Sequence record: DRR723986_21710
DNA length: 64,000 nucleotides
Reading direction: 5' to 3' (one strand)
Part shown: positions 6,167 to 62,618 of the stretch, piece after piece
Layout of the letters: every line of letters starts with the position of its first letter
Numbering within the stretch: the first letter of the stretch is position 1
Notes under the pieces: generated by a model
What the model saw: only the letters and a program-made list of their open reading frames with translations
Told to the model about the DNA's origin: nothing
Databases searched by the model: none
Position numbers and translations under genes: made by a program

Positions 6167-7300
6167 ATGAAGAAATTTTTACTGCTCCTACTTTTTACTG
6201 CTTCCCTCGCTTGCAGCGAAAAGACCGATGAAAAACAATCTGAGGCCTATATTCCCGAGCTGTTGATTACCGATAGTTTGGTGATAGATCGATTGACCGA
6301 ATTGGGAATGATAGATGTTAAAGAAGATCATTCTGAATATTTGTTTTTTGATTGGAAGAAAGATGAACTTTTAAGAATTAGTGAACATGGAGAAGTCCTC
6401 GCAAGCGCGAATCGGAGTGAAGATGGAAGGGATAGTTTTAAAGCAAGGTATTTTACCACTGCTGATTATTATGGGGAAGATGAGATTTTAATTACAACGC
6501 ATGCTGGCATATTCATTTATGATCTTGATTTCATTTTGAAAGAAGAAAAGCCTCTTGATTTTTCCCTTGTGACTCATAGGATTGGAGGAAGTAATGCTGC
6601 TGAGGTTTATAAAAATTACCTCTATACTTTTTCTGTTGATAATGATTCAGGAGAAAAAGTCTATAATTCAGAAGAGTTTAGTACATCTTATCCCTTTATG
6701 ACGCTTAGAGATATTAATTCCTTGGATATTATAAAATCACAATATATTCCTGAGCAGTCACTTATGGCTATAACCCCTGGGCAATACAATAGTTTAGATC
6801 CAATTGTGCGTTTTATAGGTGATGAGATTTTTGCTTTATTTCCCAACTCCCCAGAGCTATATGTTTATGACCTTCCATCTTTTGAGTTTAAATCATTTCA
6901 AGCTTTAAATCCTGGAGATCAATTCAAAAAGATACAACCAGTAAATAGGGATATCAATTTTGATGGTTTTTTTAAGTCATTAGCCAGTTCACAATATACT
7001 AATTATGCATTTTCAAATGGTTACTTGTTGACCCAGTATGAAGGGGCGGCTCCTCAGGATGAAGTAGATGCTTTGCCAAAAAATGTAGTTGGAGGTTCTG
7101 ATTTTGAGGCTTTAGTAAAAAAATATAAAGAGAAACAGTTTTACCAAATTTTCAAGGGAGAAGAAAAACTATGGGAAGGAACATGGAATGTCAATTTATG
7201 GTCAGTTCGTGATGTGATTTTTTCCAATGCCAAACCTGGCGAAGATCCAGAGGCCATCGAGAAAGATGTACAGACCATTTATTTTTATGAGTTGAAATAG
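6167..7300 (+). CDS. Hypothetical lipoprotein, probably beta-propeller
   Basis: Lipobox (SLAC), acidic beta-rich body; no catalytic motif recognised. Confidence 0.6.
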   Translation: MKKFLLLLLFTASLACSEKTDEKQSEAYIPELLITDSLVIDRLTELGMIDVKEDHSEYLFFDWKKDELLRISEHGEVLASANRSEDGRDSFKARYFTTADYYGEDEILITTHAGIFIYDLDFILKEEKPLDFSLVTHRIGGSNAAEVYKNYLYTFSVDNDSGEKVYNSEEFSTSYPFMTLRDINSLDIIKSQYIPEQSLMAITPGQYNSLDPIVRFIGDEIFALFPNSPELYVYDLPSFEFKSFQALNPGDQFKKIQPVNRDINFDGFFKSLASSQYTNYAFSNGYLLTQYEGAAPQDEVDALPKNVVGGSDFEALVKKYKEKQFYQIFKGEEKLWEGTWNVNLWSVRDVIFSNAKPGEDPEAIEKDVQTIYFYELK

Positions 7301-7357
7301 GACAAAATTCAAACAATCCCCCTCTCAAAATGCTTTAACCTAAAAGCATTTAAACAC

Positions 7358-8038
7358 ATGAAAGGAAAGAATATTGTCATCATAGGAGGGAATTCAGGAA
7401 TAGGAAAAGCTGTCGCTGCATTAGCCAAGGAAGGCGGAGCAAATTTGTTTCTCTATTCCCGAACTGGTGAAGGAAATTATCAAATCGATATTACAGAAGA
7501 CTCTTCAGAATTGCAGGATTTGCCTGAGGTAATCGATGGCGTAGTTTATTGTCCGGGTTCAATCAATCTCAAACCATTCCATAGGATTTCGATGGAGGAT
7601 TTTAAAACTGAGATGGAGGTTAATTTTTTTGGTGCAGTCAAAACGCTTCAGGCATGTATGAAAGGTCTTAAAAAATCGGAAGCGGCTTCGGTTGTACTTT
7701 ACAGCACTGTAGCTGTGCAAACGGGAATGGGGTTTCATGCTGGAATAGCATCTGCAAAAGGTGCTGTGGAAGGATTAGTAAGATCCTTGGCAGCAGAATG
7801 GGCACCTAATCAGATAAGAGTTAATGCCATTGCCCCATCTTTAACGGACACACCGCTAGCAAAGCAATTGGTAAGCACAGACGAAAAGCGCGCAGCCTCA
7901 GATAAAAGACATCCCTTGGGTCGAATAGGCACGCCAGACGATATAGCTGAAGCAACCTTATTTCTCTTAGATGATAAATCTTCTTGGGTCACAGGTCAAA
8001 TATTACACATAGACGGAGGAATGTCATCTTTGAAATAG
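7358..8038 (+). CDS. Short-chain dehydrogenase/reductase (SDR)
   Basis: GGNSGIG, RVNAIAPS, HPLGRIG, TGQILHIDGG; catalytic Tyr position replaced (IASAK). Confidence 0.9.
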   Translation: MKGKNIVIIGGNSGIGKAVAALAKEGGANLFLYSRTGEGNYQIDITEDSSELQDLPEVIDGVVYCPGSINLKPFHRISMEDFKTEMEVNFFGAVKTLQACMKGLKKSEAASVVLYSTVAVQTGMGFHAGIASAKGAVEGLVRSLAAEWAPNQIRVNAIAPSLTDTPLAKQLVSTDEKRAASDKRHPLGRIGTPDDIAEATLFLLDDKSSWVTGQILHIDGGMSSLK

Positions 8039-8092
8039 TAAGATATGATTATCCTCAATGTTACCAGCACCTATAATTTCTTTGCTCACCCT

Positions 8093-8121
8093 GACCGAAG
8101 ACCGAAGACAGGTGACCGAAG
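8093..8121. repeat. Heptamer tandem repeat (GACCGAA)x4, degenerate
   Basis: GACCGAA GACCGAA GACAGGT GACCGAA G. Confidence 0.75.
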
Positions 8122-8259
8122 CAGCCTAAGTGTTAGTGTTTACCAAAGCCTAAAATATCATTGTCTTATTACTGTTTGAAAAGCGGATATATATTTGATA
8201 AGAAGTAAATCAATTAAAATTCAGTTGACTTAATCTGGAGCAGTTGCTTAGCTTTATAT

Positions 8260-9261
8260 ATGAAGCATTCTCTAGTAGTTGGACTAAGTCTATTGATCTT
8301 TTCTTTTTCCTGCTCCAAGCCTGAGGCTGAAAACAGTTACATTAATACTGTATCTGGTTCGATTTCTACAGATTCAATGGGGCTAACATTGATTCATGAA
8401 CACATGCTGGTGGATTTTATCGGGGCAGATTCTATTTCGCCAAATAGCTATTCTCACGAAGATGTAATAGATAAAGTATTGCCTTATTTACTCGAAGTGA
8501 AGAAATATGGAGTAAAGACCATTTTTGATTGTACTCCTTCCTATTTGGCAAAGGATCCAGTTTTGCTTAAAAAACTGAGTGAGCAATCCGGAATTCAACT
8601 CATCACAAATACTGGACTTTATGGAACTCAAAAGGGAAAGTTTTTGCCTGATTATGCTTTCTCAGAAACAGCTGAGGAGTTGTCAGAGAGATGGATTGCT
8701 GAATACGAGGATGGGATAGAAGGAACTGGCATCAAGCCGGGGTTTATCAAAATCTCGGTCAACGAAGATAATCCTTTGGGGGAAATGGACTCTAAATTGG
8801 TCAGAGCAGCTGGTCTGACATATGAGAAAACCGGTTTAAAAATCTACTCCCACACTGGAACATGGAATACAGCCAAACAAGAAGTTGAGATTCTTCAGCA
8901 AATGGGAGTGGATCCTTCAGCTTTTGTTTGGGTACATTCGCAGGCAGAGCAGGATTTTCAGAATTACCTAGAGGCAGCTCAAATTGGAGTTTGGATCAGT
9001 TTGGATGGAATAGGATGGAGTCTGGATGAATATGTGGATCGTTTATTTTTCGCAAAGGAAAATGGTTTTTTGGGAAATGTCCTGATTTCCCATGATGCAG
9101 GATGGTACGATCCCGCCAAGCCAAATGGAGGAGAATTTGTTCCTTTCACCAATATTTTTGAAAAGCTTATGCCAGCATTAAATGCCAAAGGATTTGAAGA
9201 AGCTGATTGGAAATTGCTTTTGGAAGAGAATCCGAAACGTGCTTTTGGAAATGGGCAATGA
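8260..9261 (+). CDS. Phosphotriesterase-family amidohydrolase, lipoprotein
   Basis: Lipobox FSFSC; metal motifs TLIHEH, GFIK, YSHT, WVH, ISHDAG. Confidence 0.9.
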   Translation: MKHSLVVGLSLLIFSFSCSKPEAENSYINTVSGSISTDSMGLTLIHEHMLVDFIGADSISPNSYSHEDVIDKVLPYLLEVKKYGVKTIFDCTPSYLAKDPVLLKKLSEQSGIQLITNTGLYGTQKGKFLPDYAFSETAEELSERWIAEYEDGIEGTGIKPGFIKISVNEDNPLGEMDSKLVRAAGLTYEKTGLKIYSHTGTWNTAKQEVEILQQMGVDPSAFVWVHSQAEQDFQNYLEAAQIGVWISLDGIGWSLDEYVDRLFFAKENGFLGNVLISHDAGWYDPAKPNGGEFVPFTNIFEKLMPALNAKGFEEADWKLLLEENPKRAFGNGQ

Positions 9262-9300
9262 ACAATAAGCAATGGACAATGATCAATGGTCAATTATCAA
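9250..9300. repeat. Heptamer tandem repeat (AATNNNC)x7 overlapping the PTE stop codon
   Basis: AATGGGC AATGAAC AATAAGC AATGGAC AATGATC AATGGTC AATTATC. Confidence 0.8.
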
Positions 9301-9419
9301 ATTCAATTTTTGCTGAAGATAACTTTTCGTTCTATCTAAAATAAAAGAGGTAATGAGGGTGGAAGTTTAGAAAATGAAGTACTTGCGCAGCGCCTTTGCT
9401 GGGCGTATTTCCATTGATT

Positions 9420-11129
9420 CTAAAGTTTAGGTACATGCGCCTTGATCGCCTCTTTCGCTAGTGCTATTCTCCTTAATATTTTTTCATCATCTGCAGGAGC
9501 CAAGTCCTTTATCGAATCCATAGCCTTCGCATAATAATCCGTCCAGGTGTCGAGGATTTTTTGTTCATCTTCTTTTGATCCACCGTCTGTAATAGCTTTT
9601 TTGCTAAGCTGAACTTCAGTCATTAATCGTATTTGCGCTTTTGCTGCGATCATGAGAATCAGGTGATCTACCGTCGTCTCATCTGCATTTAATAGCGTAT
9701 AAGCCGATACTAAAGCTCCTGTACCGACATTGACCATGGTTTTCTGAGAGACTTTATCTAGACGATCATTGTCCGTATGGTAAAACTGATCTGTAAAATG
9801 CCAAAGCAACAATCCTGGAATATCTGCCTGAAGGAATGGCGCATGATCCGAGCCTCCTTCGAAAGGATTGGTTTTCACTACCCAATCAGCATATTCTCCC
9901 TGAGCTTCGAAGTTGGTCAGGATAAAGTCATTCAAATAGTGAGGTTTCATGTCTTCGATTTTCAAAGGTCTGCCACCCCATTCGCTGTGTTTATCCTCTC
10001 CACGAGTCCAAATGGCACTTGGATCTGGCATTTTTTCGATTAGGAAAGTTCCGCCAGTGACGTCTGTATTTTCTCCCACCATATCCAAGGAAATTCCCCA
10101 GTTGATATCGGCTTCACGCTTATCTTTTTCTTCTATATATCTTCTCGTTGAAATGATCTCATCTCCCCATAGGAAAGTCAAAGTACGCTTCAGATCAAGT
10201 TTGCCTTGCTTCATCAACTCAGCAGTGATTTTCGCCATTTCCAATTGAGTACCCACGCCAGTAGCATTGTCATTTGCGCCAGGCTCTTGGATGTGAGCGG
10301 AGAAAACAAAGCTTTCCAAAGGCAATTCTGATCCTTTTACATTAGCCACAACGGTGAGTTCTTCCGATTCATAAATCTTCGTTTCTGCTTTCACAGTCAC
10401 TTCGACTTTGCCGTTTGCCAACTCAGCTTTCAGTTTTTCTTTTGCTTCAAAAGAAAGTGCAATCGCCCAAGCAGGGTTATTGGCATCATGTCTCAACCCG
10501 CGAAACTGTATAGAAGTAACGTTTTTTTCAGGCTGCAAATAGCTAGGCATATCATAAGTCAAGACACCCAGAGCGCCTTTGTCTTTCAAGGCTGACTGCA
10601 AAGTTCTGTAGCCAACCTGATCCGAAAAGAGAATTTTTCCCTTTAAATCAACAGAGGAAAGAGCTTCCTTGCTCTCTACATAAATTACTTCCCCGGTAAT
10701 TCCTTCAGCAGGAGTGGAGGAGGAGTACATATAAATCATGTTTCGATTGGTCTCCGAGGAAAGTAAGGTTTCGTTGGAACCAACTATTTTCAAGGAAGCA
10801 GAAACAGGCTCCCAAGTTGGCTGACGCATCTCCCTGGTTTCTATTCTGTAGGTGAACCGATCTGAGTCCTTCGCTTTTTCCTCCAAAACATATCCGGACG
10901 CTTCGAGCTTCTCAGCAATTCGATATACCGTATTATTAAAGCCGGTATTCCCGGCAAGTCTCCAGTATTGCTCCACAAAAGCCACGGTTTCATAGGCCAA
11001 ATCACCCTTGAATTCCGGTCTTACCAACTTAAAATAAGGATCAGTAACTTTCTGAAGTGGAGCGTTTTGAGCAAAAGAACTTATGCTTAGAACGAAGAGA
11101 AGAAGGGAAAAGGAAGTTTTTAAATACAT
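9420..11129 (-). CDS. M28-family metallopeptidase with PA-like insert, secreted
   Basis: FSAHIQ, GANDNATG, GDE, SLDMVG, GGSDH, YHTDND; likely start ATG 11129 with signal peptide. Confidence 0.88.
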   Translation of the reverse strand: MYLKTSFSLLLFVLSISSFAQNAPLQKVTDPYFKLVRPEFKGDLAYETVAFVEQYWRLAGNTGFNNTVYRIAEKLEASGYVLEEKAKDSDRFTYRIETREMRQPTWEPVSASLKIVGSNETLLSSETNRNMIYMYSSSTPAEGITGEVIYVESKEALSSVDLKGKILFSDQVGYRTLQSALKDKGALGVLTYDMPSYLQPEKNVTSIQFRGLRHDANNPAWAIALSFEAKEKLKAELANGKVEVTVKAETKIYESEELTVVANVKGSELPLESFVFSAHIQEPGANDNATGVGTQLEMAKITAELMKQGKLDLKRTLTFLWGDEIISTRRYIEEKDKREADINWGISLDMVGENTDVTGGTFLIEKMPDPSAIWTRGEDKHSEWGGRPLKIEDMKPHYLNDFILTNFEAQGEYADWVVKTNPFEGGSDHAPFLQADIPGLLLWHFTDQFYHTDNDRLDKVSQKTMVNVGTGALVSAYTLLNADETTVDHLILMIAAKAQIRLMTEVQLSKKAITDGGSKEDEQKILDTWTDYYAKAMDSIKDLAPADDEKILRRIALAKEAIKAHVPKL

Positions 11130-11180
11130 ATTGGAAAGTTGAATTCGATCGCTTGAAGGCCGCAAGATAGCCGTTTATGA

Positions 11181-11789
11181 TTATTTCTTCCCGACTTTAA
11201 ATCTCATTTTATATGTAGCATTGAGGTACCACGGCATGGCATTGTTTGCTCCGAAAGCAGAGAGGCTGACCGCATTTTTTCGATTAGGGTTCTTGGAGTT
11301 CCACTCAGCTTCTAATTCCATGAACAAGCCCACACGCTGATATTTGTTCGTAATGTAGGCGGTGGATGTTGTCTCCGAAGAAAAAGGATCGGAGCGAATA
11401 AATGTCTCTCCACCTAGCTGTAGTGATGGTCCAGCTGAAAATGCCAAATTGAATCCGGAAGGCCGCTGAATAATGTCGTACTTAAAAGATGGAGTGATAA
11501 AAATTCCAGAGGATTGTTCCTCATTTTTTCCGCTAGAATACGTAGGCAAGGGTTTTTCATTGTAGCTGCCTAGTGATTGGTAGAATGAGAGGCTTGTATT
11601 GAATGAGGTTCTTTTGCCAAGCCTTACATTGAGTTCATTGGAGAAATTGAGACCATAAAGATCATTCATGCCATCGATGGAAGAGCCTAAGCCTACTGTG
11701 TATTGTAGTTTAGGTTTTTCCTGCGCATTTGTAAAGATCGGATTGAATGCAAAAAAGAAAAGGATCAGAAGTAGTCGATGTGATTTCAT
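11181..11789 (-). CDS. Hypothetical secreted / small outer-membrane beta-barrel protein
   Basis: Likely start ATG 11789 (MKSHRLLLILFFFAF...AQ signal peptide); alternating amphipathic strands; the upstream ORF extension runs through a tandem repeat and is probably untranslated. Confidence 0.6.
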   Translation of the reverse strand: MKSHRLLLILFFFAFNPIFTNAQEKPKLQYTVGLGSSIDGMNDLYGLNFSNELNVRLGKRTSFNTSLSFYQSLGSYNEKPLPTYSSGKNEEQSSGIFITPSFKYDIIQRPSGFNLAFSAGPSLQLGGETFIRSDPFSSETTSTAYITNKYQRVGLFMELEAEWNSKNPNRKNAVSLSAFGANNAMPWYLNATYKMRFKVGKK

Positions 11790-11928
11790 ATACAGAAAGT
11801 TTAGAAGTTGATTTATCGAATTACTACTAATCTTCTTTAATACTAAACTTTCTTTAGGTTGTTTAACTAAAACATTGTTAATTAAATAGTTGTCAGTGAT
11901 TTTTGGGTGTTTTAACGAAGAGTAATCA

Positions 11929-12007
11929 CTTTCCAACCTTACCACTTTCCAACTTCTTACCCAAAAATTCCAATCTTCCAATCTTTCAATTTTCCAATCC
12001 GACAATC
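11929..12007. repeat. Octamer tandem repeats (TTCCAATC-like), degenerate
   Basis: CTTTCCAA CCTTACCA CTTTCCAA ... TTCCAATC TTCCAATC TTTCAATT TTCCAATC CGACAATC. Confidence 0.75.
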
Positions 12008-12071
12008 CGTTAAGACCAAACATTATTCTGTAAATTTTCCAAGATCACTTCCTCAATTTAATTGACCTGCT

Positions 12072-12079
12072 TACCTTTG
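12072..12079 (+). promoter_or_regulatory. -7 promoter element TACCTTTG, 3 nt before the guaA ATG
   Basis: Exact TAnnTTTG match followed by CGC-ATG. Confidence 0.6.
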
Positions 12080-12082
12080 CGC

Positions 12083-13612
12083 ATGGCAGAACAAATCTTG
12101 ATCCTCGATTTCGGTTCTCAGTACACACAACTCATCGCCCGAAGAGTTAGAGAGCTGAATGTTTATTGCGAAATCCACCCCTATAACAAAGTTCCAGAAA
12201 TCACCTCCGACATTAAAGGAGTGATACTTTCAGGTTCTCCTTGCTCGGTAAGAGATGAGGGGTCTCCTGATTTGGACTTGGATATTTTGAGAGGCAAACT
12301 TCCTCTTTTGGGCGTATGTTACGGTTCTCAACTTTTAGCACAGAAATATGGCGGAGAAGTGCTTCCATCTGAGATTAGAGAATACGGTCGCGCAAATCTT
12401 AGTCACCTTGACAATCATTACGATTTGCTCAAGGAAATGAGCCATGGTTCGCAAGTTTGGATGTCACATGGGGATACGATCAAGAATTTGCCTGAAAATT
12501 TTGAAGTGATAGCCAGCACAGACTCTGTTCGTGTGGCTGCATTCAAAATTCAAAATGAAGAAACTTACGGCATTCAATTCCACCCAGAGGTAACTCACTC
12601 TTCGGAGGGGAAAAACCTACTTAGAAATTTCGTGGTAGGAATCTGTGGCTGTTCCCAAGACTGGACTTCAGATGTGTTTATCGATGCGAGTATTGCAGAT
12701 TTAAAAGCTAAGATCGGTTCAGACAAGGTAGTAATGGGGCTTTCTGGAGGAGTTGATTCTTCTGTGGCTGCTACACTTATTCACCGTGCGATTGGCGATC
12801 AGCTGATCTGCGTTTTTGTGGATAATGGTTTGCTTCGCAAAAATGAATTCGAAGAAGTATTGGATTCATATAAGCACATGGGACTAAATGTGATTGGCGT
12901 AGATGCTAAGCAAAAGTTCTATGATGCACTTGCTGGTGTTACTGATCCAGAAGCAAAGAGAAAGGCGATTGGAAATGCTTTTATCGAGGTTTTCGACGAA
13001 GAATCAAATAAACTTGAAGGTGTGAAATGGCTTGGACAAGGCACGATCTACCCAGATGTTATTGAGTCTATTTCTGTGAAAGGACCTTCTGCTACGATCA
13101 AATCTCACCACAATGTGGGTGGTTTACCTGATTTCATGAAGCTTTCTGTAGTGGAGCCTTTGAATACCCTTTTCAAAGATGAGGTTCGTGAGGTGGGGAG
13201 AGCGTTGGACATTGTGGAAACTATCATCGGGCGTCATCCTTTCCCGGGACCGGGGCTTGGAATCCGTATTTTGGGAGATGTGACTGCTGAGAAAGTAAAA
13301 ACACTTCAGGAAGTTGATCATATTTTCATCAAAGGCTTAAAAGATTCAGGTCTTTATGATCAGGTATGGCAAGCAGGAGCGATGCTGCTTCCAATTCAGT
13401 CTGTTGGTGTGATGGGAGATGAGCGTACCTATGAGAAAGTTGTTGCCCTACGAGCCGTTGGTTCTGTGGATGGCATGACCGCAGATTGGATTCACTTGCC
13501 TTACGAGTTTTTAGGTAAGATTTCTAATGACATCATCAATAAGGTTAAAGGTGTAAACAGAGTTGTTTATGATATTTCTTCTAAGCCACCTGCAACCATT
13601 GAGTGGGAATAG
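12083..13612 (+). CDS. guaA: GMP synthase (glutamine-hydrolysing)
   Basis: [51 protein letters not shown]; start at ATG 12083. Confidence 0.98.
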
Positions 13613-56631: not shown

Positions 56632-56769
56632 AGTCTAATGGATGTAATCCATAAAATAAGCCTGCCAAAAGCAAAATTTTATCTATATTAAACTCAGCAT
56701 TAAAGAATAAATGTTGGTTTAGTTGAGAGGAGAGCTCTTTAAGGTGATACGGTACTAATTATTTAACTT

Positions 56770-58476
56770 ATGAAAACGATTCGAATTTTTATTGCCTCTT
56801 CGTCAGAATTGAAAGAGGACCGGGAAGAGTTTAGAGCTTTTATTTCCCGAGAAAATGATCGTTTACACACCAAAGGAATTTACTTAAAGTTAGAGCAATG
56901 GGAGTTTTTCAAAGATTCCATTTCGAGTACTCGGCTACAAGATGAATACAATGAAGCTATTCGCCAGAGTGATTTAGTTTTATGTCTTTTCTATACCAAG
57001 GTTGGAAAATACACTGCCGAAGAATTTTACACTGCATACGAAATTTTCAAAGCACAAGGTAAACCTAGGATTTGGACCTATTTTAAAAATGCTTCCATTA
57101 ATGTGGGCGCTATCACAGACGAAATTAATACCCTTTTAGATTTCAAAAAGAAATTAGGAGAGCTAGGCCATTTTCACACTGAATACACTTCAATCGACAA
57201 TCTCGTTAATAAATACAGAAGTCAGCTGGACATGATTTTGCAGGAATACGAATCTGGCTCACCTGCCAAGGAAGTTGAAAATGCTAGTCATTCCTCCTCT
57301 AAAAAGGAGGCGGGAGAGGTAGAGAATAGATTTAATGAGGTTCTGACTAAAAGTCTACTAGAAGCTATTAGTACTCATAATCGGAAAGCTGGTGATTTTT
57401 TATCCGCAAATGCGGACTGGGCAGCAAATGCGGATTTGGTAAAAACAGCTAAGAGAATTATCATAAGTGGATATGTTGGGGTGATAGGCAGCCAAATCCG
57501 AAAGTTAATGTCTATAGGCGCAGAGGGTTATTCTGATAGCAAAATGATGAGGTATTTGGAGAACTGCCAGATTACGGCTAAGCGAGGCTTACAACTTATT
57601 TGCTATGCTCTAATTTCGAGCTTATGGGATCATCAGTTAGCCGGTAAAATTGAGTTTTCTACATCCCAGAAGAATGCCCTAGTCAAGTTTTTCAGAAATG
57701 CTGCTGAAGAAGATATCCTTGCATTTGTAGAACTGCTAAGTCATTTGCTGGAAATATATACTGACAATAAATTGGATTTTCTCATTTCCGAATCACTAGA
57801 CTTGCTTCCTGGCCTTCAGGAAGGCGGAGATATATGGAACGCTTGCCAAAAACTAAATGAGTCATCGCAGCTTTTAAAAAATGCCTCTTACACCCTTGAA
57901 GATTGTAGGGAAACAGAAGAAAATCTGGCGGTGGTATTGGAGAGGCTAAGTTTCTTGTCAGAATACAGAATGATCTCTATTAATGAGATAGATTTTAATC
58001 AGCAGAGAAATGATCAGGAAGGGTTATATCTGCACAATTATACCTTGCTGATAGGAGAGAGTCTGGCAAATAATGAGAGTCAAAGTAATGTGCGAAGAGA
58101 GTCATCTCCGGTGATTTCTCATGCCGTGATTATTTTTAAGGATAATTATCGGAATAATATAAATCTCGATCCTTTTATCATTGATTTGAATGGATTGAAG
58201 TTAGAAGGTGGTTCAAAAATCTGCTTTTATTCTCATGCAAATACGTATGATGATCTAAGTCTCAACTATAGTTTTATCGAGGATAATAGCAAGGAAGTCA
58301 TCACTAAGTCAGATAATCCAAGACCTAGCGACTCTAGTTTGAATGTGCTTAATTCCTGGCTTTCCAAAAAGGGAAATAGAATAGATATGAACCTTGATAA
58401 GGTTTACAGTTTGTTTTTCGAAGCTAAAAAAGCCTTGACAGGTGTAGAAGAAGAATTTGCTGAAGACTCATTTTAA
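56770..58476 (+). CDS. TIR-like (DUF4062-type) N-terminal domain fused to a large uncharacterised domain; predicted conflict-system effector
   Basis: RIFIASSSELKEDR, WE, QDEYN..IRQSDLVLCLFYTKVGKYT.EEF..A, PRIWTYFK; low-complexity linker; ~385-aa C-terminal domain. Confidence 0.75.
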   Translation: MKTIRIFIASSSELKEDREEFRAFISRENDRLHTKGIYLKLEQWEFFKDSISSTRLQDEYNEAIRQSDLVLCLFYTKVGKYTAEEFYTAYEIFKAQGKPRIWTYFKNASINVGAITDEINTLLDFKKKLGELGHFHTEYTSIDNLVNKYRSQLDMILQEYESGSPAKEVENASHSSSKKEAGEVENRFNEVLTKSLLEAISTHNRKAGDFLSANADWAANADLVKTAKRIIISGYVGVIGSQIRKLMSIGAEGYSDSKMMRYLENCQITAKRGLQLICYALISSLWDHQLAGKIEFSTSQKNALVKFFRNAAEEDILAFVELLSHLLEIYTDNKLDFLISESLDLLPGLQEGGDIWNACQKLNESSQLLKNASYTLEDCRETEENLAVVLERLSFLSEYRMISINEIDFNQQRNDQEGLYLHNYTLLIGESLANNESQSNVRRESSPVISHAVIIFKDNYRNNINLDPFIIDLNGLKLEGGSKICFYSHANTYDDLSLNYSFIEDNSKEVITKSDNPRPSDSSLNVLNSWLSKKGNRIDMNLDKVYSLFFEAKKALTGVEEEFAEDSF

Positions 58477-58506
58477 TTTTTTATAACCCACAAACTTGGA
58501 ATCCCC

Positions 58507-60489
58507 ATGAAAAAGTATCCTTTCAAATTTCTTGACTCCTATCAAAGAGAAGATAGAAATGTGTTTTTTGGAAGGGATGAGGAGATCAAAGCTTTGTACG
58601 AGATGGTTTTTCAATCGGCAACAGTTCTTGTGTATGGAGCGTCTGGAACAGGCAAAACGAGTTTGATCAATTGTGGCTTGGCTGGCAAGTTTCAGCCTCA
58701 TGATTGGCTGGATCTGATGATCCGACGCGGATCTGATATCAATAAATCTTTGAAATCAGCTTTGGAAAAGGCTGGAGGAAAGGTGGATTTGGATTTTGAT
58801 GAAACTAGCTATCTAGACGAATGGGAAATAGATGCGGATAATTCGAGTCAGCAACTTACTCCAATCAGTAAATCAATTCGGGCAGTTTATCAAAAGAACT
58901 TCAGACCTGTGTATTTGATATTTGATCAGTTTGAGGAACTTTTCATCCTTGGCTCTCTTACCGAGCAGCAGATATTATTAGAAACAATACAAGGTATTCT
59001 CAAATCAGGTCAACCTGTAAAGTTGATATTCTCTATTCGAGAGGAGTATTTGGGGTATTTGTTTGATTTTGAGCGGGCTATTCCTCAGCTGTTTCGCAAG
59101 AAATTGCGTGTGGAACCAATGAATTTGGACAAGGTCAAGCAAGTGATTATTGGAGCTACGGCATATGAAGGATCAAATATATCTATCAAGGAAGGAGAAG
59201 AAGATGCAGTTGCTGAAGCTATTTTTCACAAAATCAAAGGCGACAAAAAATCCCTGACCATTCAATTGCCATTTTTGCAGGTATTTTTGGATAAGCTATA
59301 CCTGAATATAACTGGAGACAAAAGGAGAGAAAAACCGGCTGAATTCACTTCTGAAAAAGTGAATGAAATGGGTAAGATCGGTGATATCTTGAGCAATTTT
59401 CTAGAGGAACAGGTAGCTGATATTTCTAAAGAATTGAACGGAAACTACCCGACCTTGAATTCTTCTATAATCTGGAAAATACTCTCTCCATTTGCCACAT
59501 TGGAAGGTACAAAAGACCCTATCACTAAAGATGAATTGTTTGACCGATTACCGGACTTAGACCAAAAAATGGTCAATGACGTGGTAGAGGTTTTTTCCAA
59601 TAGCCGACTCCTTCGCTACAATGAGAATACAGATACGTTTGAGATTTCCCATGATTCCCTAGCCAAGCCAATCGCAGAACGGAGAAGTGTTGAGGAAACT
59701 TCGCTCCTGGAAGTTAAACGCTTGATTAGAAGTCAGGTCGGAGTAAATGAAGATGCAAGGGAATATTTCACTGAGAAGCAGCTTATCTATATCGAGCCAT
59801 CTTTGAAAAAGTTAAAGCTAAGTGAAGAGGAGCTTAATTGGATAGAGAAAAGTCGAGATGCGCTCAAGAAGGAAAAGCAGAGGGAGGCCAAGCAGAAGTA
59901 TGATGACTTGGTGAAGAGTAAAAAGTCAATGTTTTTGAAAGTTGCAGTTGGAGTGTTTGTAGTGATCGCTGGGCTTTTTATTTTAATCGCATTTAAAGCT
60001 CAAAAAAGTGCAAATGATGCTTTAGAAGCGGGAAAAGCAGTGACTATAGAAAAGAATTACTCTGACGGATTGATTAGACTATTGCTTGAAGGTAAGGGAG
60101 ATCAATATGAAAATCTAAGTGAAGATGACTTGAAAGGTTTATTAGAAATGGAAAGAGTTGCTCCAATAGACAGTTTGGTGGAAATAAGAGCATCCGTTAG
60201 TCCCTCTAACACCTTATCTGGAGGCAAGAAAAATTATAATTTCACATTTTGGCTTGAGCTTCCGTCATTTAGGAAAAATGAAATAAAGGAAGTTAGATAC
60301 AATTTTTGTAAAGGATTTTATGATAGTATTCGGACTTCTAGAGATCAGACTTCTTCTTTTTCAATTGGCTATTTGGGCTGGGGTGTTTGTGATACAATTC
60401 GAGTTGATATTGTTTTAGAAAATGGAATTACTATTCGTGAAAAATTCCCTTTTAAAGAATATATTTCAAAAAGACTTCCGATAGAATAA
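58507..60489 (+). CDS. STAND NTPase (nSTAND1-type) + coiled coil + TM + C-terminal YEATS-like domain
   Basis: YPFKFLDSY...FFGRD.E, Walker A GASGTGKT, Walker B LIFDQFEELF, SIREEY, LPFLQV, EISHDSL; TM VAVGVFVVIAGLFILIAF; YNFTFWL...IKEVRY.F...F...FSIGYLGWG. Confidence 0.85.
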   Translation: MKKYPFKFLDSYQREDRNVFFGRDEEIKALYEMVFQSATVLVYGASGTGKTSLINCGLAGKFQPHDWLDLMIRRGSDINKSLKSALEKAGGKVDLDFDETSYLDEWEIDADNSSQQLTPISKSIRAVYQKNFRPVYLIFDQFEELFILGSLTEQQILLETIQGILKSGQPVKLIFSIREEYLGYLFDFERAIPQLFRKKLRVEPMNLDKVKQVIIGATAYEGSNISIKEGEEDAVAEAIFHKIKGDKKSLTIQLPFLQVFLDKLYLNITGDKRREKPAEFTSEKVNEMGKIGDILSNFLEEQVADISKELNGNYPTLNSSIIWKILSPFATLEGTKDPITKDELFDRLPDLDQKMVNDVVEVFSNSRLLRYNENTDTFEISHDSLAKPIAERRSVEETSLLEVKRLIRSQVGVNEDAREYFTEKQLIYIEPSLKKLKLSEEELNWIEKSRDALKKEKQREAKQKYDDLVKSKKSMFLKVAVGVFVVIAGLFILIAFKAQKSANDALEAGKAVTIEKNYSDGLIRLLLEGKGDQYENLSEDDLKGLLEMERVAPIDSLVEIRASVSPSNTLSGGKKNYNFTFWLELPSFRKNEIKEVRYNFCKGFYDSIRTSRDQTSSFSIGYLGWGVCDTIRVDIVLENGITIREKFPFKEYISKRLPIE

Positions 60490-60492
60490 CTT

Positions 60493-62085
60493 TCACTGAA
60501 CAATATTTAATAGTCCTGCAGTTTTTAGATGATCTTGCACAGTAAGCTTTCCGCTAAGATCAAGTTCAGGCACTTCTCCTATATCATTTTGGTGAAAATG
60601 ATAAACAAATATCGAGAGAACTTTATTTGGCAGACTTGTCTTTTTCAGGTCATCTGGGAGGGTGTCATAACTGTTTTTTAACAATTGCTGTGAAACCCCT
60701 GGCGTCATAGCAACATTGCTCATTGTGGCAGGGTTTGATGCGACGATAAATGCAAACATCCTAAACTCAGACTCTACCTTAAAAAACATGGACTTAAAAA
60801 TCTCGAAGTAGGTGAACTTTCCATCACCGCCTAGATTTTGAGTAAATCGCTGTTCTGTTGGTACTGAAGAACCATCGATGCGGAATTTTTCCAAACTGGT
60901 GGTCAATGCAAAGCCATCCATATCATAATAGTAATGGAGCTGATTTTTGTATCCTGCCTCTACTAGATCTTTTCTGAGAAATGAATCTACCTGGCCAAGA
61001 GTAGATAAGGATGGCTTAAAGTCTGCTTTTATGAAATTTGCAGATGCAAGTGGAGCTGGGTTAGGGAAAAAATAGTATTGTAAACTGTTAGAAGGCATTT
61101 GCACCATCGCAGAGCCTCCGTTACTTAATTCCTCACCTAAGTTGTCCTTATCCAAAGGGAACTTGTTGCATAGCTCCCGATAAAGGGCTTCGAGGACTTT
61201 AGGGTTCAATTCTTCTTTAATAAATTTATCCCGTTCACTTGTGACGCTACTTTTGAAATCATAGAATTGATCATATAAAAGTCTTTTATTGAAATTCCGC
61301 CCAACTCGAGTTCTTTTAGATACTACATATTTTAGTTGAACATACCTTGATAACAAATCCAATCTTGAAGCAGCTGTATAATCCGGGTTAATAAAATTAG
61401 GATCCCCAAAAGAAAATGGTTGAAAATCAGGCTTATTAGTTATGATTTCCCTACTAAGTGGCATAGAATAGATGCCAGCATAGAATTCTAGAGAATCAAT
61501 ATGGAACTGGTTTTTATTTTTTGCAGCTAGAAAAATGCGCTGAAAGTCAGGATAAAGATCCTCGTTAAACAAGGTGTTTAATTCATTTTTCAAGCTTCTG
61601 ATTTCTGATTTCAAAAGCAGGTTTGATTCCTGATCAAATTTGATCAATTCAAAAAGGCTATTTTCTTTTTTATCGAATGTTTGGAAATCTTCAATTTTGG
61701 CAGAGTTGTAATAATTAATTCCTCGATCAAGTAAACTTTTCAATCTACGTAATAAGCCACGACTTACTTCATCACTGCTACGGTGCAGAAGCTTTGTTTG
61801 ATTTTGATAAAAAAGTGCATTTGTGAAATTATAAAGGGAAGAATTTGCTCTAATAAAAGTGCTGTTTGTTATAGCCTTGATTTGGTCATTTTCATATGCA
61901 ATAATCTTTTTTAAACGTTCTTCAGGAATGGTGTCAAAATAAATTTCTACCAGATACAAGTTCATATATGCTTGTGCAAGAGTAATTGTATCGTTTTTAT
62001 TTGCGGTAGAGATATCCTGAGCACTAGCAGTATATATACCCAAAAGTATCAGAAGGCAGGGAAGAAGGAATCTGAAAAACTTCAT
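60493..62085 (-). CDS. Secreted hypothetical protein: helical N-terminal region plus a distinct C-terminal alpha/beta domain
   Basis: Signal peptide (ASAQ); C-terminal FPNPAP.AS...TLGQV...AGY...YY...GFALTT.LE...DG...RF...HLKTAGL. Confidence 0.7.
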   Translation of the reverse strand: MKFFRFLLPCLLILLGIYTASAQDISTANKNDTITLAQAYMNLYLVEIYFDTIPEERLKKIIAYENDQIKAITNSTFIRANSSLYNFTNALFYQNQTKLLHRSSDEVSRGLLRRLKSLLDRGINYYNSAKIEDFQTFDKKENSLFELIKFDQESNLLLKSEIRSLKNELNTLFNEDLYPDFQRIFLAAKNKNQFHIDSLEFYAGIYSMPLSREIITNKPDFQPFSFGDPNFINPDYTAASRLDLLSRYVQLKYVVSKRTRVGRNFNKRLLYDQFYDFKSSVTSERDKFIKEELNPKVLEALYRELCNKFPLDKDNLGEELSNGGSAMVQMPSNSLQYYFFPNPAPLASANFIKADFKPSLSTLGQVDSFLRKDLVEAGYKNQLHYYYDMDGFALTTSLEKFRIDGSSVPTEQRFTQNLGGDGKFTYFEIFKSMFFKVESEFRMFAFIVASNPATMSNVAMTPGVSQQLLKNSYDTLPDDLKKTSLPNKVLSIFVYHFHQNDIGEVPELDLSGKLTVQDHLKTAGLLNIVQ

Positions 62086-62279: not shown

Positions 62280-62449
62280 AAGAATCCAAACAGTCCTTCG
62301 TTTAAAAGTTGTTGAAAAGTGAATAAACGCCCCTAGTTTTTTGTCTATTATCTAATTTCTGGAATGTAATCCTTGCTAAGAAAATTTGATTTAATAGTCC
62401 CAAATTATAATTGGAGATAACCGAAAGCCACTGGCTTTCGGTTTTTTTT
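62280..62449 (+). ncRNA. Candidate small RNA (~170 nt), family unknown
   Basis: Bounded by a -7 box and a strong terminator; only a 5-codon GTG frame and an ATG-TAA seen inside. Confidence 0.4.
62419..62449 (+). terminator. Strong Rho-independent terminator
   Basis: AACCGAAAGCC-ACT-GGCTTTCGGTT followed by further T-run. Confidence 0.85.
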
Positions 62450-62618
62450 ATTTGTAAGGTGCCCATACTTCCTTAATTTTTTTATTAATTAGCCAAGTCA
62501 ATAAAAAAACGCATCCTGAAATTGAGCATTTCAAAATCACGCCAAATGGCCTGTTTTTGAAATTGTGAGATTCCTCTGGATTCTTTATGGGATGACCATT
62601 ATAATTAATAATAATAAG

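Follow-up and report, generated by a model that had tools for sequence, protein, structure and literature searches.

How can an immune-type NTPase of the bacterial cytoplasm respond to a signal on the far side of the inner membrane? This question is raised by a three-gene cassette in a stretch of 64,000 nucleotides from sequence record DRR723986_21710 (the whole stretch is referred to as the window), which belongs to a marine Bacteroidota genome. An earlier note on this DNA had described two co-oriented genes, here named g1 and g2, and a third, convergent gene (g3) placed between glycosidase genes of the families GH113 and GH109, and open reading frame (ORF) calls and the sequence agree exactly with this layout. 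Read directly from the sequence, the spacer between g1 and g2 measures 30 bp and 3 bp separate the stop codons of g2 and g3. The cassette appears to encode a membrane-spanning ATPase switch of the immune type (g2) which reads a signal from outside the cytoplasm by means of an exchangeable outer domain and a secreted partner, and which probably activates a separately encoded NAD-degrading enzyme (NADase), g1, inside the cell. We consider it reasonably likely that the cassette is a conflict system of the NLR-like kind in which sensing takes place in the periplasm and a TIR-like NADase is released in trans, and, with moderate confidence, we place the locus in a Bacteroidota family of conflict modules that most likely act against phages.

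The central component is g2, for which the earlier note had named an nSTAND1-type NTPase with intact Walker motifs and a YEATS-like domain. Both domains score above the respective Pfam cut-offs (Table 1), and across 23 homologs neither the Walker A nor the Walker B motif varies; nSTAND1 is found above its cut-off also in 10 variant g2 proteins. Because the NTPase begins at residue 5, g2 carries no N-terminal effector. The proposed pair of a coiled coil and a transmembrane (TM) helix held for the helix (residues 474-496), the supposed coiled coil being a stretch rich in glutamate and lysine in front of it. The helix was compared in 34 g2 proteins, 23 pYEATS forms and 11 others. Each has one hydrophobic stretch, 19-24 uncharged residues long, whose position is the same despite the turnover of its sequence (mean hydropathy 1.9-3.25), and in 32 of the 34 lysine and arginine are commoner in the 15 residues before the helix than in those after it (mean 6.3 versus 3.3). 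This charge bias favors a cytoplasmic NTPase and an external C-terminus. We propose that g2 is a type-II single-pass inner-membrane protein, with the NTPase in the cytoplasm and a short stalk and the sensor in the periplasm. Within the pYEATS domain, C601 and C628 are invariant in the alignment of g2 homologs, and all 41 proteins retrieved with the g2 ectodomain show the combination of nSTAND1 and pYEATS (precomputed PF20305 assignments).

What follows the TM helix differs between related loci, for which we used the best 80 of 112 confirmed loci (numbered with the prefix L) from a motif-seeded scan of GTDB species genomes. After the same helix we found pYEATS, a fused WD40 domain (L043), fused LRR and WG repeats (L049, L052), or unknown domains (L040, L046). 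A further form ends in a stub of about 90 aa with a conserved cysteine pair (L035, L050, L056, L044), and here the product of the next co-directional gene begins with a classical signal peptide. This partner is a WD40 protein of 919-1035 aa in L035, L050, and L056, as confirmed by Pfam for the first two and inferred for L056 from 30% identity to the L050 protein; in L044 a fragment of 224 aa precedes the contig end. From the gene arrangements, a membrane NTPase combined with a secreted, presumably periplasmic partner is a recurring design. Judged from its sequences, the family as a whole keeps the TM helix and a predicted cytoplasmic core of TIR-like protein and nSTAND1 invariant, and the periplasmic sensor or secreted partner can be exchanged. 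The WD40 forms also yielded two separate observations. In L060 (a metagenome-assembled genome (MAG) of the Flavobacteriaceae; 9732-13551) the WD40 ectodomain fused to g2 is interrupted and spread over two ORFs, and the second ORF lacks a signal peptide; unlike the true split forms, this is likely a frameshift or an assembly error. A conserved gene pair (628 and 675 aa; 256 and 250 aa) is located 3' of the WD40 partner in L035 (14363-17019) and L060 (13765-16544), the 628-aa protein of L035 having a TPR-type PADLOC match; the two genes may be further components of this WD40 variant.

These variants bear on the possibility that the hydrophobic segment does not span the membrane and that g2 is entirely cytoplasmic, like classical Avs and NLR proteins. 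WD40 and LRR sensors are indeed cytoplasmic in known NLRs. Nevertheless, we regard this possibility as highly improbable, given the conserved position of the segment with its positive-inside bias, the signal peptides of the partner proteins, and the cysteine pairs conserved after the helix. The view that g2 crosses the membrane with its sensor outside is thereby upheld by the helix, the charge bias, and the split sensors with a signal peptide of their own.

The region from the pre-TM helix onward is exchanged as a unit between strains. Two Algoriphagus yeomjeoni strains (L019 and L020) share 97-100% DNA identity over 9 kb outside one sharply bounded block, which extends from approximately codon 421 of g2 to its stop codon, and the same block is replaced between two A. 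aquimarinus loci (L023 and L024), whose flanks are 75-100% identical. Within the block the DNA identity drops to 41-66% in these two pairs. On the protein level, L019 and L020 are 98-99% identical in g1, 93% in the g2 NTPase, 49% in the g2 ectodomain, and 97% in g3. Among 23 loci, 14 ectodomain clusters were distinguished at >75% identity, while every segment is under purifying selection within allele classes (ratio of nonsynonymous to synonymous substitution rates, dN/dS, 0.02-0.17). Between the window and A. yeomjeoni DSM 23446 (L020), dS amounts to 0.19 in the ectodomain and to 0.65-0.81 elsewhere, indicating a recent transfer of the allele between species. Block replacement, ectodomain diversity, and interspecies transfer, as read from these alignments, look like signs of conflict-like evolution.

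The effector had been expected to come in trans from the upstream gene and to co-occur with the NTPase gene in other genomes. The tblastn table over all 80 loci agrees with this: the auxiliary region of g1 was detected in 46 of them, and g2 lies directly downstream in 44. The contigs of the other two (L051, L068) break off within g1 or just behind it. The pair spans Cyclobacteriaceae, Flavobacteriaceae, Chitinophagaceae, Sphingobacteriaceae, and Prolixibacteraceae. As g1 never occurs without g2 where the contig permits checking, a stand-alone action of g1 is argued against. Pairwise distances of g1 residues 190-398, for which the Pfam scan gave no match, track those of the g2 NTPase most strongly (r 0.88). 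An ESM Atlas search with residues 186-568 led to unnamed Bacteroidota clusters and to a lead below 0.9 to EAD11 (0.83).

The N-terminal domain of g1 occurs more widely. It was found without the auxiliary region in 34 of the 80 loci, none of which has g2. In these loci the domain forms the C-terminus of LRR-Roc-COR proteins or the N-terminus of NB-ARC-TPR or RCC1 proteins, or constitutes a small protein adjoining a kinase-TPR gene. Given these varied protein contexts, the domain behaves as a portable effector module, and such module sharing, as far as domain architectures tell, is typical of effector domains. In L069, L070, and L082 (Flavobacterium, Zoogloea, and Parabacteroides) ROCO proteins of 935-1169 aa carry a g1-type TIR-like domain (55-58% identity) C-terminally and represent a GTPase-based counterpart of the STAND pairing. 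A 709-aa protein in L075 (a Crocosphaera MAG; 7230-9356) contains a canonical DUF4062 domain (E 1.3e-35, residues 9-91), a second, g1-type domain (residues ~258-411), and a GUN4-like C-terminus.

Is this module a NADase? The earlier note had assigned a TIR/DUF4062-like start to g1, which is sustained on the level of the fold and falls short on the level of Pfam. The AlphaFold2 model of g1 (mean predicted local distance difference test, pLDDT, 75.4) shows a disordered linker between the N-domain and the helical domain, and TIR domains are the best fold match of the N-domain when Foldseek's own candidates are re-scored by VIA-align. Six residues of g1, W44, E45, E84, E85, F86, and Y90, are invariant in 25 homologs, with E84-E85 opening the helix that follows the third strand of the model. 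By description, and not by alignment, W44-E45 and E84-E85-F86...Y90 fit the "Q/W/E" and "E-Y" motifs of the Evangelion preprint. DUF4062 reaches E<=0.01 in 16 of 25 g1 family members (best 1.1e-4) and TIR_2 in 6 of 25, and some g1 homologs carry the UniRef label DUF4062. The PADLOC candidate PDC-S60 matches g1 with E 2.4e-14; since the match is confined to profile positions 3-203 of 906 (g1 residues 2-195), the N-domain alone is common to both.

Several results speak against this assignment. The g1 N-terminus itself stays below threshold for TIR_2 (PF13676; E 7.6e-4, 20.4 bits, cut-off 28) and for DUF4062/NIR (PF13271; E 8.3e-3, 16.7 bits, cut-off 24.7), and the model confidence of the N-domain is middling (block pLDDT 52-86). 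A Foldseek comparison of the g1 model with the PDB gave no match at E<=0.001, and flavodoxin-like, GTPase, and receiver folds lie within about 2 Z units of TIR. E84 and E85 remain candidate counterparts of the catalytic glutamates E97/E98/E103/E108 of characterized DUF4062 proteins. In separate searches, hhalign of the g1 family against one canonical DUF4062 sequence aligned nothing, and sequence searches of the PDB with g1, g2, g3, and the family of the g3 C-terminal domain returned nothing meaningful. The same spectrum of fold matches as for the g1 N-domain is reported for DUF4062 in the accessible text of the NIR preprint (2026). The domain could instead be a nucleotide N-glycosidase, a signal-producing TIR, or a non-catalytic scaffold of the assemblage around TIR and nucleoside 2-deoxyribosyltransferases. 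This we consider quite unlikely, because acidic residues are invariant at the expected position, PDC-S60 and UniRef DUF4062 labels are attached to g1 homologs, and the nearest characterized relatives are NADases according to the accessible preprint texts.

The third gene had been called a secreted partner, and its distribution conforms to this. Its convergent, adjacent copy is present in 24 of 25 loci with a detectable pYEATS-type ectodomain and in none of the 10 non-pYEATS loci with downstream sequence; these counts leave out nine further loci that are truncated or frameshifted. On a tree of concatenated g1 and g2 NTPase sequences with 37 rows (L029, L031, L053, L054, L058, L083, and loci without both genes were left out), well-supported branches force at least three joint gains or losses of pYEATS and g3. 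Since secreted partners recur in the stub forms, these provide the best argument for g3 as a genuine partner in the pYEATS form, where it is likely a periplasmic co-sensor or regulator.

The protein itself resembles little that is annotated. Its hydrophobic N-terminus is kept across 26 homologs, while scans with Pfam, NCBIfam, and PADLOC gave no match, ESM Atlas no usable match, and Foldseek no PDB match of the g3 model (pLDDT 79.6) at E<=0.001. In a wide VIA-align search the list was taken up by the helical N-terminal domain, so that the fold of the C-terminal domain was barely tested. A profile search with g3 returned 2347 cluster representatives at E<=1e-3, most of which match just profile positions ~325-528. 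Ten scanned members of this C-domain family contain other domains, namely pilin N_methyl, CarboxypepD_reg (2), CsgG/FlgO, and, fused in one member, a caspase domain, and no Pfam model covers the shared C-domain in them. In the alignment, family members display an FPWPPPxAS ... GYYR ... signature, and many of them seem to start with lipoprotein-like signal sequences. The g3 profile showed no similarity to the WD40 partners or to other ectodomains. A complex prediction of mature g3 (24-530) with the g2 ectodomain (498-660) yielded an ipSAE of 0.00 in two runs without alignments, which is evidence neither way.

The role of g3 is the weakest link of the system as we propose it. It might be that g1 and g2 alone constitute the system and that g3 is an unrelated periplasmic protein co-travelling with the pYEATS module 3 bp away; this we regard as a minor possibility that deserves to be taken seriously. 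A number of observations point in this direction and detract from a function of g3 in the cassette. Genome G185 encodes a 35%-identical g3 homolog with no g1 or g2 nearby and, with the query used, none in the genome. In L055 a weak pYEATS match is accompanied by no g3 within 5.8 kb, and g3 was found in just 2 of 151 genomes of a family-wide sample. With the NTPase controlled for, distances in the ectodomain show no covariation with those in g3 (partial Mantel r -0.02), the ectodomain allele differs between L019 and L020 at nearly the same g3, and the C-domain is widespread outside the cassette context. Co-transfer alone could explain part of the pattern of adjacency between g3 and pYEATS. On the other hand, g3 stays beside g2 in the 24 pYEATS loci, which span three families and g3 identities as low as 36%, it is absent from all 10 non-pYEATS loci, the two characters changed jointly on the tree, a signal-peptide protein likewise accompanies g2 in the split forms without pYEATS, L028 has an in-place duplication of g3, and the dN/dS of g3 is low (0.09-0.17). 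The duplication concerns Algoriphagus sp. SE2 (L028, 4125-16008), in which a long form of 841 aa adjoins g2 and a short form of 527 aa is found; in addition, an MG2/macroglobulin-like protein of 892 aa and a GH19-like protein of 186 aa are inserted between GH113 and g1. In the complete genome of A. halophilus SOCE003 (L029, 9732-11694) g2 is spread over three frames by two frameshifts with g1 and g3 intact, possibly a pseudogene or an assembly error.

The locus is patchy and no core feature of its relatives: of 25 genomes assigned to its GTDB genus, 5 contain full-length g2 orthologs, the scarcity of g3 in the family-wide sample (2 of 151 genomes) fits this pattern as well, and in four of five complete congeners without the cassette GH113 and GH109 are directly adjacent, representing the empty site. 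The fifth (L104, G003:C5; 2849-9727) carries at this junction an unrelated insert of 6.9 kb encoding metallophosphoesterase, glyoxalase, TfoX-N, pirin-like, and GAF proteins, which makes the GH113/GH109 junction a variable spot in Algoriphagus. No tRNA, flanking direct (att-like) repeats, or Rfam match was found at the cassette borders.

The genomic surroundings lend no help to a role in conflict and in part weigh against it. The cassette occupies the same GH113/GH109 site in 15 of 24 complete loci, with other contexts elsewhere, and this indicates long vertical inheritance in part of Algoriphagus. PADLOC on 127 flanking ORFs of 17 loci gave scattered matches with at most two members per family and no per-locus statistics, and 10 large flank proteins gave one weak TPR match. 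The cassette matched no complete PADLOC system, an outcome that the earlier note had named as a sign of novelty; with the co-occurrence of g1 and g2 and the patchy distribution, none of the genomic outcomes which that note had listed as refuting its idea was observed. The cassette genes were not found in the plasmid collection, where just nSTAND1 relatives of 23-25% identity were retrieved (four records), and the phage collection contained no match to them.

With this in mind we considered that the same machinery serves another end than phage defense, as a sensor of envelope damage or competitors that drives dormancy, death, or another output; triggers could be lysins, effectors of the type VI secretion system, predators, or antibiotics attacking the cell wall. 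The predicted sensor is periplasmic, where cell-wall fragments and foreign enzymes appear, a defense-island context was not found around the loci, the cassette is stable at one chromosomal site in the 15 loci, and domains of the g3 C-domain family recur in many ordinary lipoproteins and secreted proteins. We still consider this unlikely, since allelic replacement and the high diversity of the ectodomain point to an evolving antagonist, all characterized DUF4062 systems so far are anti-phage as far as the accessible preprint texts state, and the patchy presence with empty sites fits accessory immunity.

Returning to the anti-phage conflict system, its mode of action can be outlined because of the established biology of STAND, TIR, and DUF4062 proteins, running from periplasmic sensing through NTPase oligomerization to trans-activation of the NADase. 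A change in the envelope would be picked up by the g2 ectodomain, by g3, or by both, candidate triggers being cell-wall damage or a protein or enzyme product of phage origin. The single g2 helix would carry the signal across the membrane, upon which the NTPase modules would oligomerize as in other STAND/NLR proteins. Through the auxiliary region of g1, the g2 oligomer would recruit or cluster this protein, whose TIR-like domains, once clustered, would hydrolyze NAD+ and halt the infected cell. In this scheme we infer NADase activity, oligomerization, contact between g1 and g2, a ligand, the role of g3, and a defense phenotype. In a more general and tentative form, Bacteroidota may possess a family of transmembrane NLR-like receptors, single-pass STAND NTPases that survey the periplasm for invaders with the help of secreted co-receptors and of ectodomains that can be swapped (pYEATS, WD40, LRR), and that signal across the inner membrane to assemble a TIR-like NADase encoded apart from them. 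This would be a prokaryotic counterpart in layout of Toll-like receptors, and allelic replacement of the ectodomain would keep receptor specificity polymorphic within species.

The bacterial NLR-like and Avs proteins known so far monitor the cytoplasm; if the proposal is true, a STAND switch reading the periplasm guards the envelope too, the first compartment breached by a phage or competitor. It would also offer a tractable bacterial model for the transmembrane activation of an NLR-type oligomer. The family supplies natural experiments, with one cytoplasmic core joined to pYEATS, WD40, or LRR, sensors either fused or secreted, and at least two ectodomain alleles in a single species. For two uncharacterized modules, pYEATS outside the cell and the large periplasmic family of the g3 C-domain, it provides a first context.

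All three genes of the cassette are intact (Table 1) and, with dN/dS of 0.02-0.17 over g1, g2, and g3 in six pairs with informative divergence (g1 0.02-0.10), under purifying selection, which identifies them as real genes rather than chance ORFs. Among public genomes, that of Algoriphagus winogradskyi DSM 15360 is nearest, with cassette proteins that are 99% identical. The upstream neighbor was confirmed as GH113 by PF22612 (E 2.1e-52) and the downstream one as GH109 by Glyco_hydro_109_C (E 1.2e-40) and GFO_IDH_MocA (E 2.7e-14). In the gap between g3 and GH109, positions 62405-62457 of the window (+ strand) form a strong hairpin followed by a T-run (minimum free energy -24.2 kcal/mol, z -5.9; 0 of 200 shuffles fold equally well). 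It has no Rfam match and no + strand gene upstream, and may be a bidirectional terminator or the end of a small RNA.

Table 1. Positions of the cassette genes and their features in the window
Feature	Position	Strand	Remarks
Intergenic region 5' of g1	56632-56769	+	138 bp; presumed promoter; sigma-70 consensus scan does not suit Bacteroidota promoters
g1	56770-58476	+	568 aa; intact ORF; 389 homologs retrieved; candidate effector: TIR-like domain and auxiliary region
TIR-like/DUF4062-like domain, g1 residues 1-161	56770-57252	+	five-strand beta-alpha fold in AlphaFold2 model
E84-E85 codons of g1	57019-57024	+	candidate catalytic glutamate(s); invariant in 25 homologs
All-helical auxiliary domain, g1 residues 190-398	57337-57963	+	block-mean pLDDT mostly 83-95, one block 74
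Beta-rich region, terminal helices, acidic tail, g1 residues 399-568	57964-58473	+	model; conserved EEExxEDxF end
g2	58507-60489	+	660 aa; intact ORF; nSTAND1 NTPase, one TM helix, pYEATS ectodomain
nSTAND1 STAND NTPase module, g2 residues 5-386	58519-59664	+	PF20703, E 1.3e-40, 140.7 bits (cut-off 27.1)
Walker A GASGTGKTS, g2 residues 44-52	58636-58662	+	invariant in 23 sequences
Walker B LIFDQFEE, g2 residues 137-144	58915-58938	+	invariant in 23 sequences
Exchangeable 3' module of g2, ~residue 421 to stop	59770-60489	+	pre-TM helix, TM helix, ectodomain; from strain comparisons
Single TM helix, g2 residues 474-496	59926-59994	+	predicted N-in/C-out; 19-residue mean hydropathy 2.8
pYEATS domain, g2 residues 577-643	60235-60435	+	predicted periplasmic; PF20305, E 1.4e-13, 50.9 bits (cut-off 26.9)
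g3	60493-62085	-	530 aa; intact ORF; candidate secreted partner, convergent with g2
Alpha/beta domain, g3 residues 335-530	60496-61083	-	unannotated extracytoplasmic family; FPxPPPxAS ... GYYR ... motifs; residues 344-529 in model
TPR-like helical domain, g3 residues 32-308	61162-61992	-	model
Signal peptide, g3 residues 1-23	62017-62085	-	MKFFRFLLPCLLILLGIYTASAQ; hydrophobic segment; predicted

The earlier note had called the system undescribed. As regards the architecture this stands: the literature on nSTAND1, pYEATS, DUF4062, and transmembrane STAND proteins did not describe it in the texts searched, figures and supplements, which may depict DUF4062-STAND operons, being outside the search. 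It does not extend to the components. In the accessible text of 2026 preprints, DUF4062, renamed NIR, is a TIR-like NADase and the effector of Avs2, Swarozyc, Vulcan, and Vesta (10.64898/2026.05.01.722283; 10.64898/2026.09.04.749371), and three such preprints together place it in Swarozyc, Evangelion, Avs2, Vulcan, and Vesta. The words "transmembrane" and "periplasm" are absent from the main texts of these three. TIR-ParA dyads, in which ParA is combined with pYEATS or forms a type-II single-TM receptor with extracellular sensors, are presented by the Aravind group (Li, Burroughs & Aravind) in the relevant sections of a further preprint (10.64898/2026.10.19.760177). The cassette, with its predicted TM and pYEATS STAND protein and a candidate effector in trans, represents a variation on themes already described for DUF4062 NADases and TIR-NTPase dyads.

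Among the known systems, Avs2 with a NIR effector (PsAvs2; 10.64898/2026.09.04.749371), as far as its accessible text goes, shares with the cassette a STAND NTPase, a TIR-like NADase-type effector, and a variable sensor, and the same logic of sensing, oligomerization, and effector activation is expected. The earlier expectation that the layout departs from Avs was correct. Avs is one cytoplasmic polypeptide made up of effector, NTPase, and TPR-like repeat sensor, whereas in the cassette the effector has its own gene, the NTPase belongs to the nSTAND1 clade, a TM helix before the sensor places it, by prediction, outside, and a secreted partner gene is attached; the PADLOC scan returned no Avs model among its matches to the cassette. 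Swarozyc, Evangelion, and Vulcan resemble g1 in plan, with an N-terminal TIR-like/DUF4062-like domain with a conserved glutamate followed by a large auxiliary region. According to their accessible descriptions they act alone, their own auxiliary region sensing phage proteins, whereas g1 is strictly paired with g2. PDC-S60 likewise differs from g1, which does not match this profile of 906 positions over its full length.

The closest published concept, in a different NTPase class, is that of the TIR-ParA dyads. Both arrangements, each of them a prediction, have an upstream TIR-type gene and then an NTPase gene with pYEATS or single-TM topology. The dyads as described in the sections devoted to them combine ParA (SIMIBI class) with a conventional TIR, the cassette a STAND NTPase with a TIR-like protein; g2 is an nSTAND1 and not a ParA-clade protein, and its Pfam scan gave no ParA/CbiA-type match. 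There, pYEATS and the TM receptor are separate subtypes, while g2 combines them, and the sections on the dyads mention neither a secreted partner gene, for which the cassette offers the candidate g3, nor allelic ectodomain exchange. The NTPase clade itself was defined as nSTAND1 by Kaur et al. (2021, eLife), and the conflict systems of multicellular bacteria (Kaur et al. 2020, 2021, eLife) have this clade and variable C-terminal sensors in common with the cassette, as their accessible text indicates. A study of diversity-generating retroelements (DGR) predicts, in its accessible part, periplasmic sensor domains for some STAND proteins (10.1101/2023.09.22.558884). The nSTAND1/DGR systems described in these sources rely on fused effectors or on effector-associated adaptor domains, and retroelements diversify their C-type-lectin/FGS sensors. 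The cassette differs from them in that its ectodomain diversity arises by cassette-like recombination and its effector is DUF4062-like.

Zorya, with its MotAB-like motor, and Kiwa (KwaA/KwaB) are anti-phage systems anchored in the membrane; they detect infection at the envelope and signal to a cytoplasmic effector. They share this concept with the cassette; their proteins are unrelated to it and include neither a STAND NTPase nor a NADase. Toll-like receptors and plant receptor-like proteins combine an extracellular LRR-type or other ectodomain and a single TM helix with cytoplasmic signaling of the TIR family. The LRR variants of g2 (L049, L052) most resemble the layout of Toll-like receptors, which is an analogy only. 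Unlike in Toll-like receptors, the TIR-like domain resides on a polypeptide of its own, and a STAND NTPase is interposed between this protein and the TM helix.

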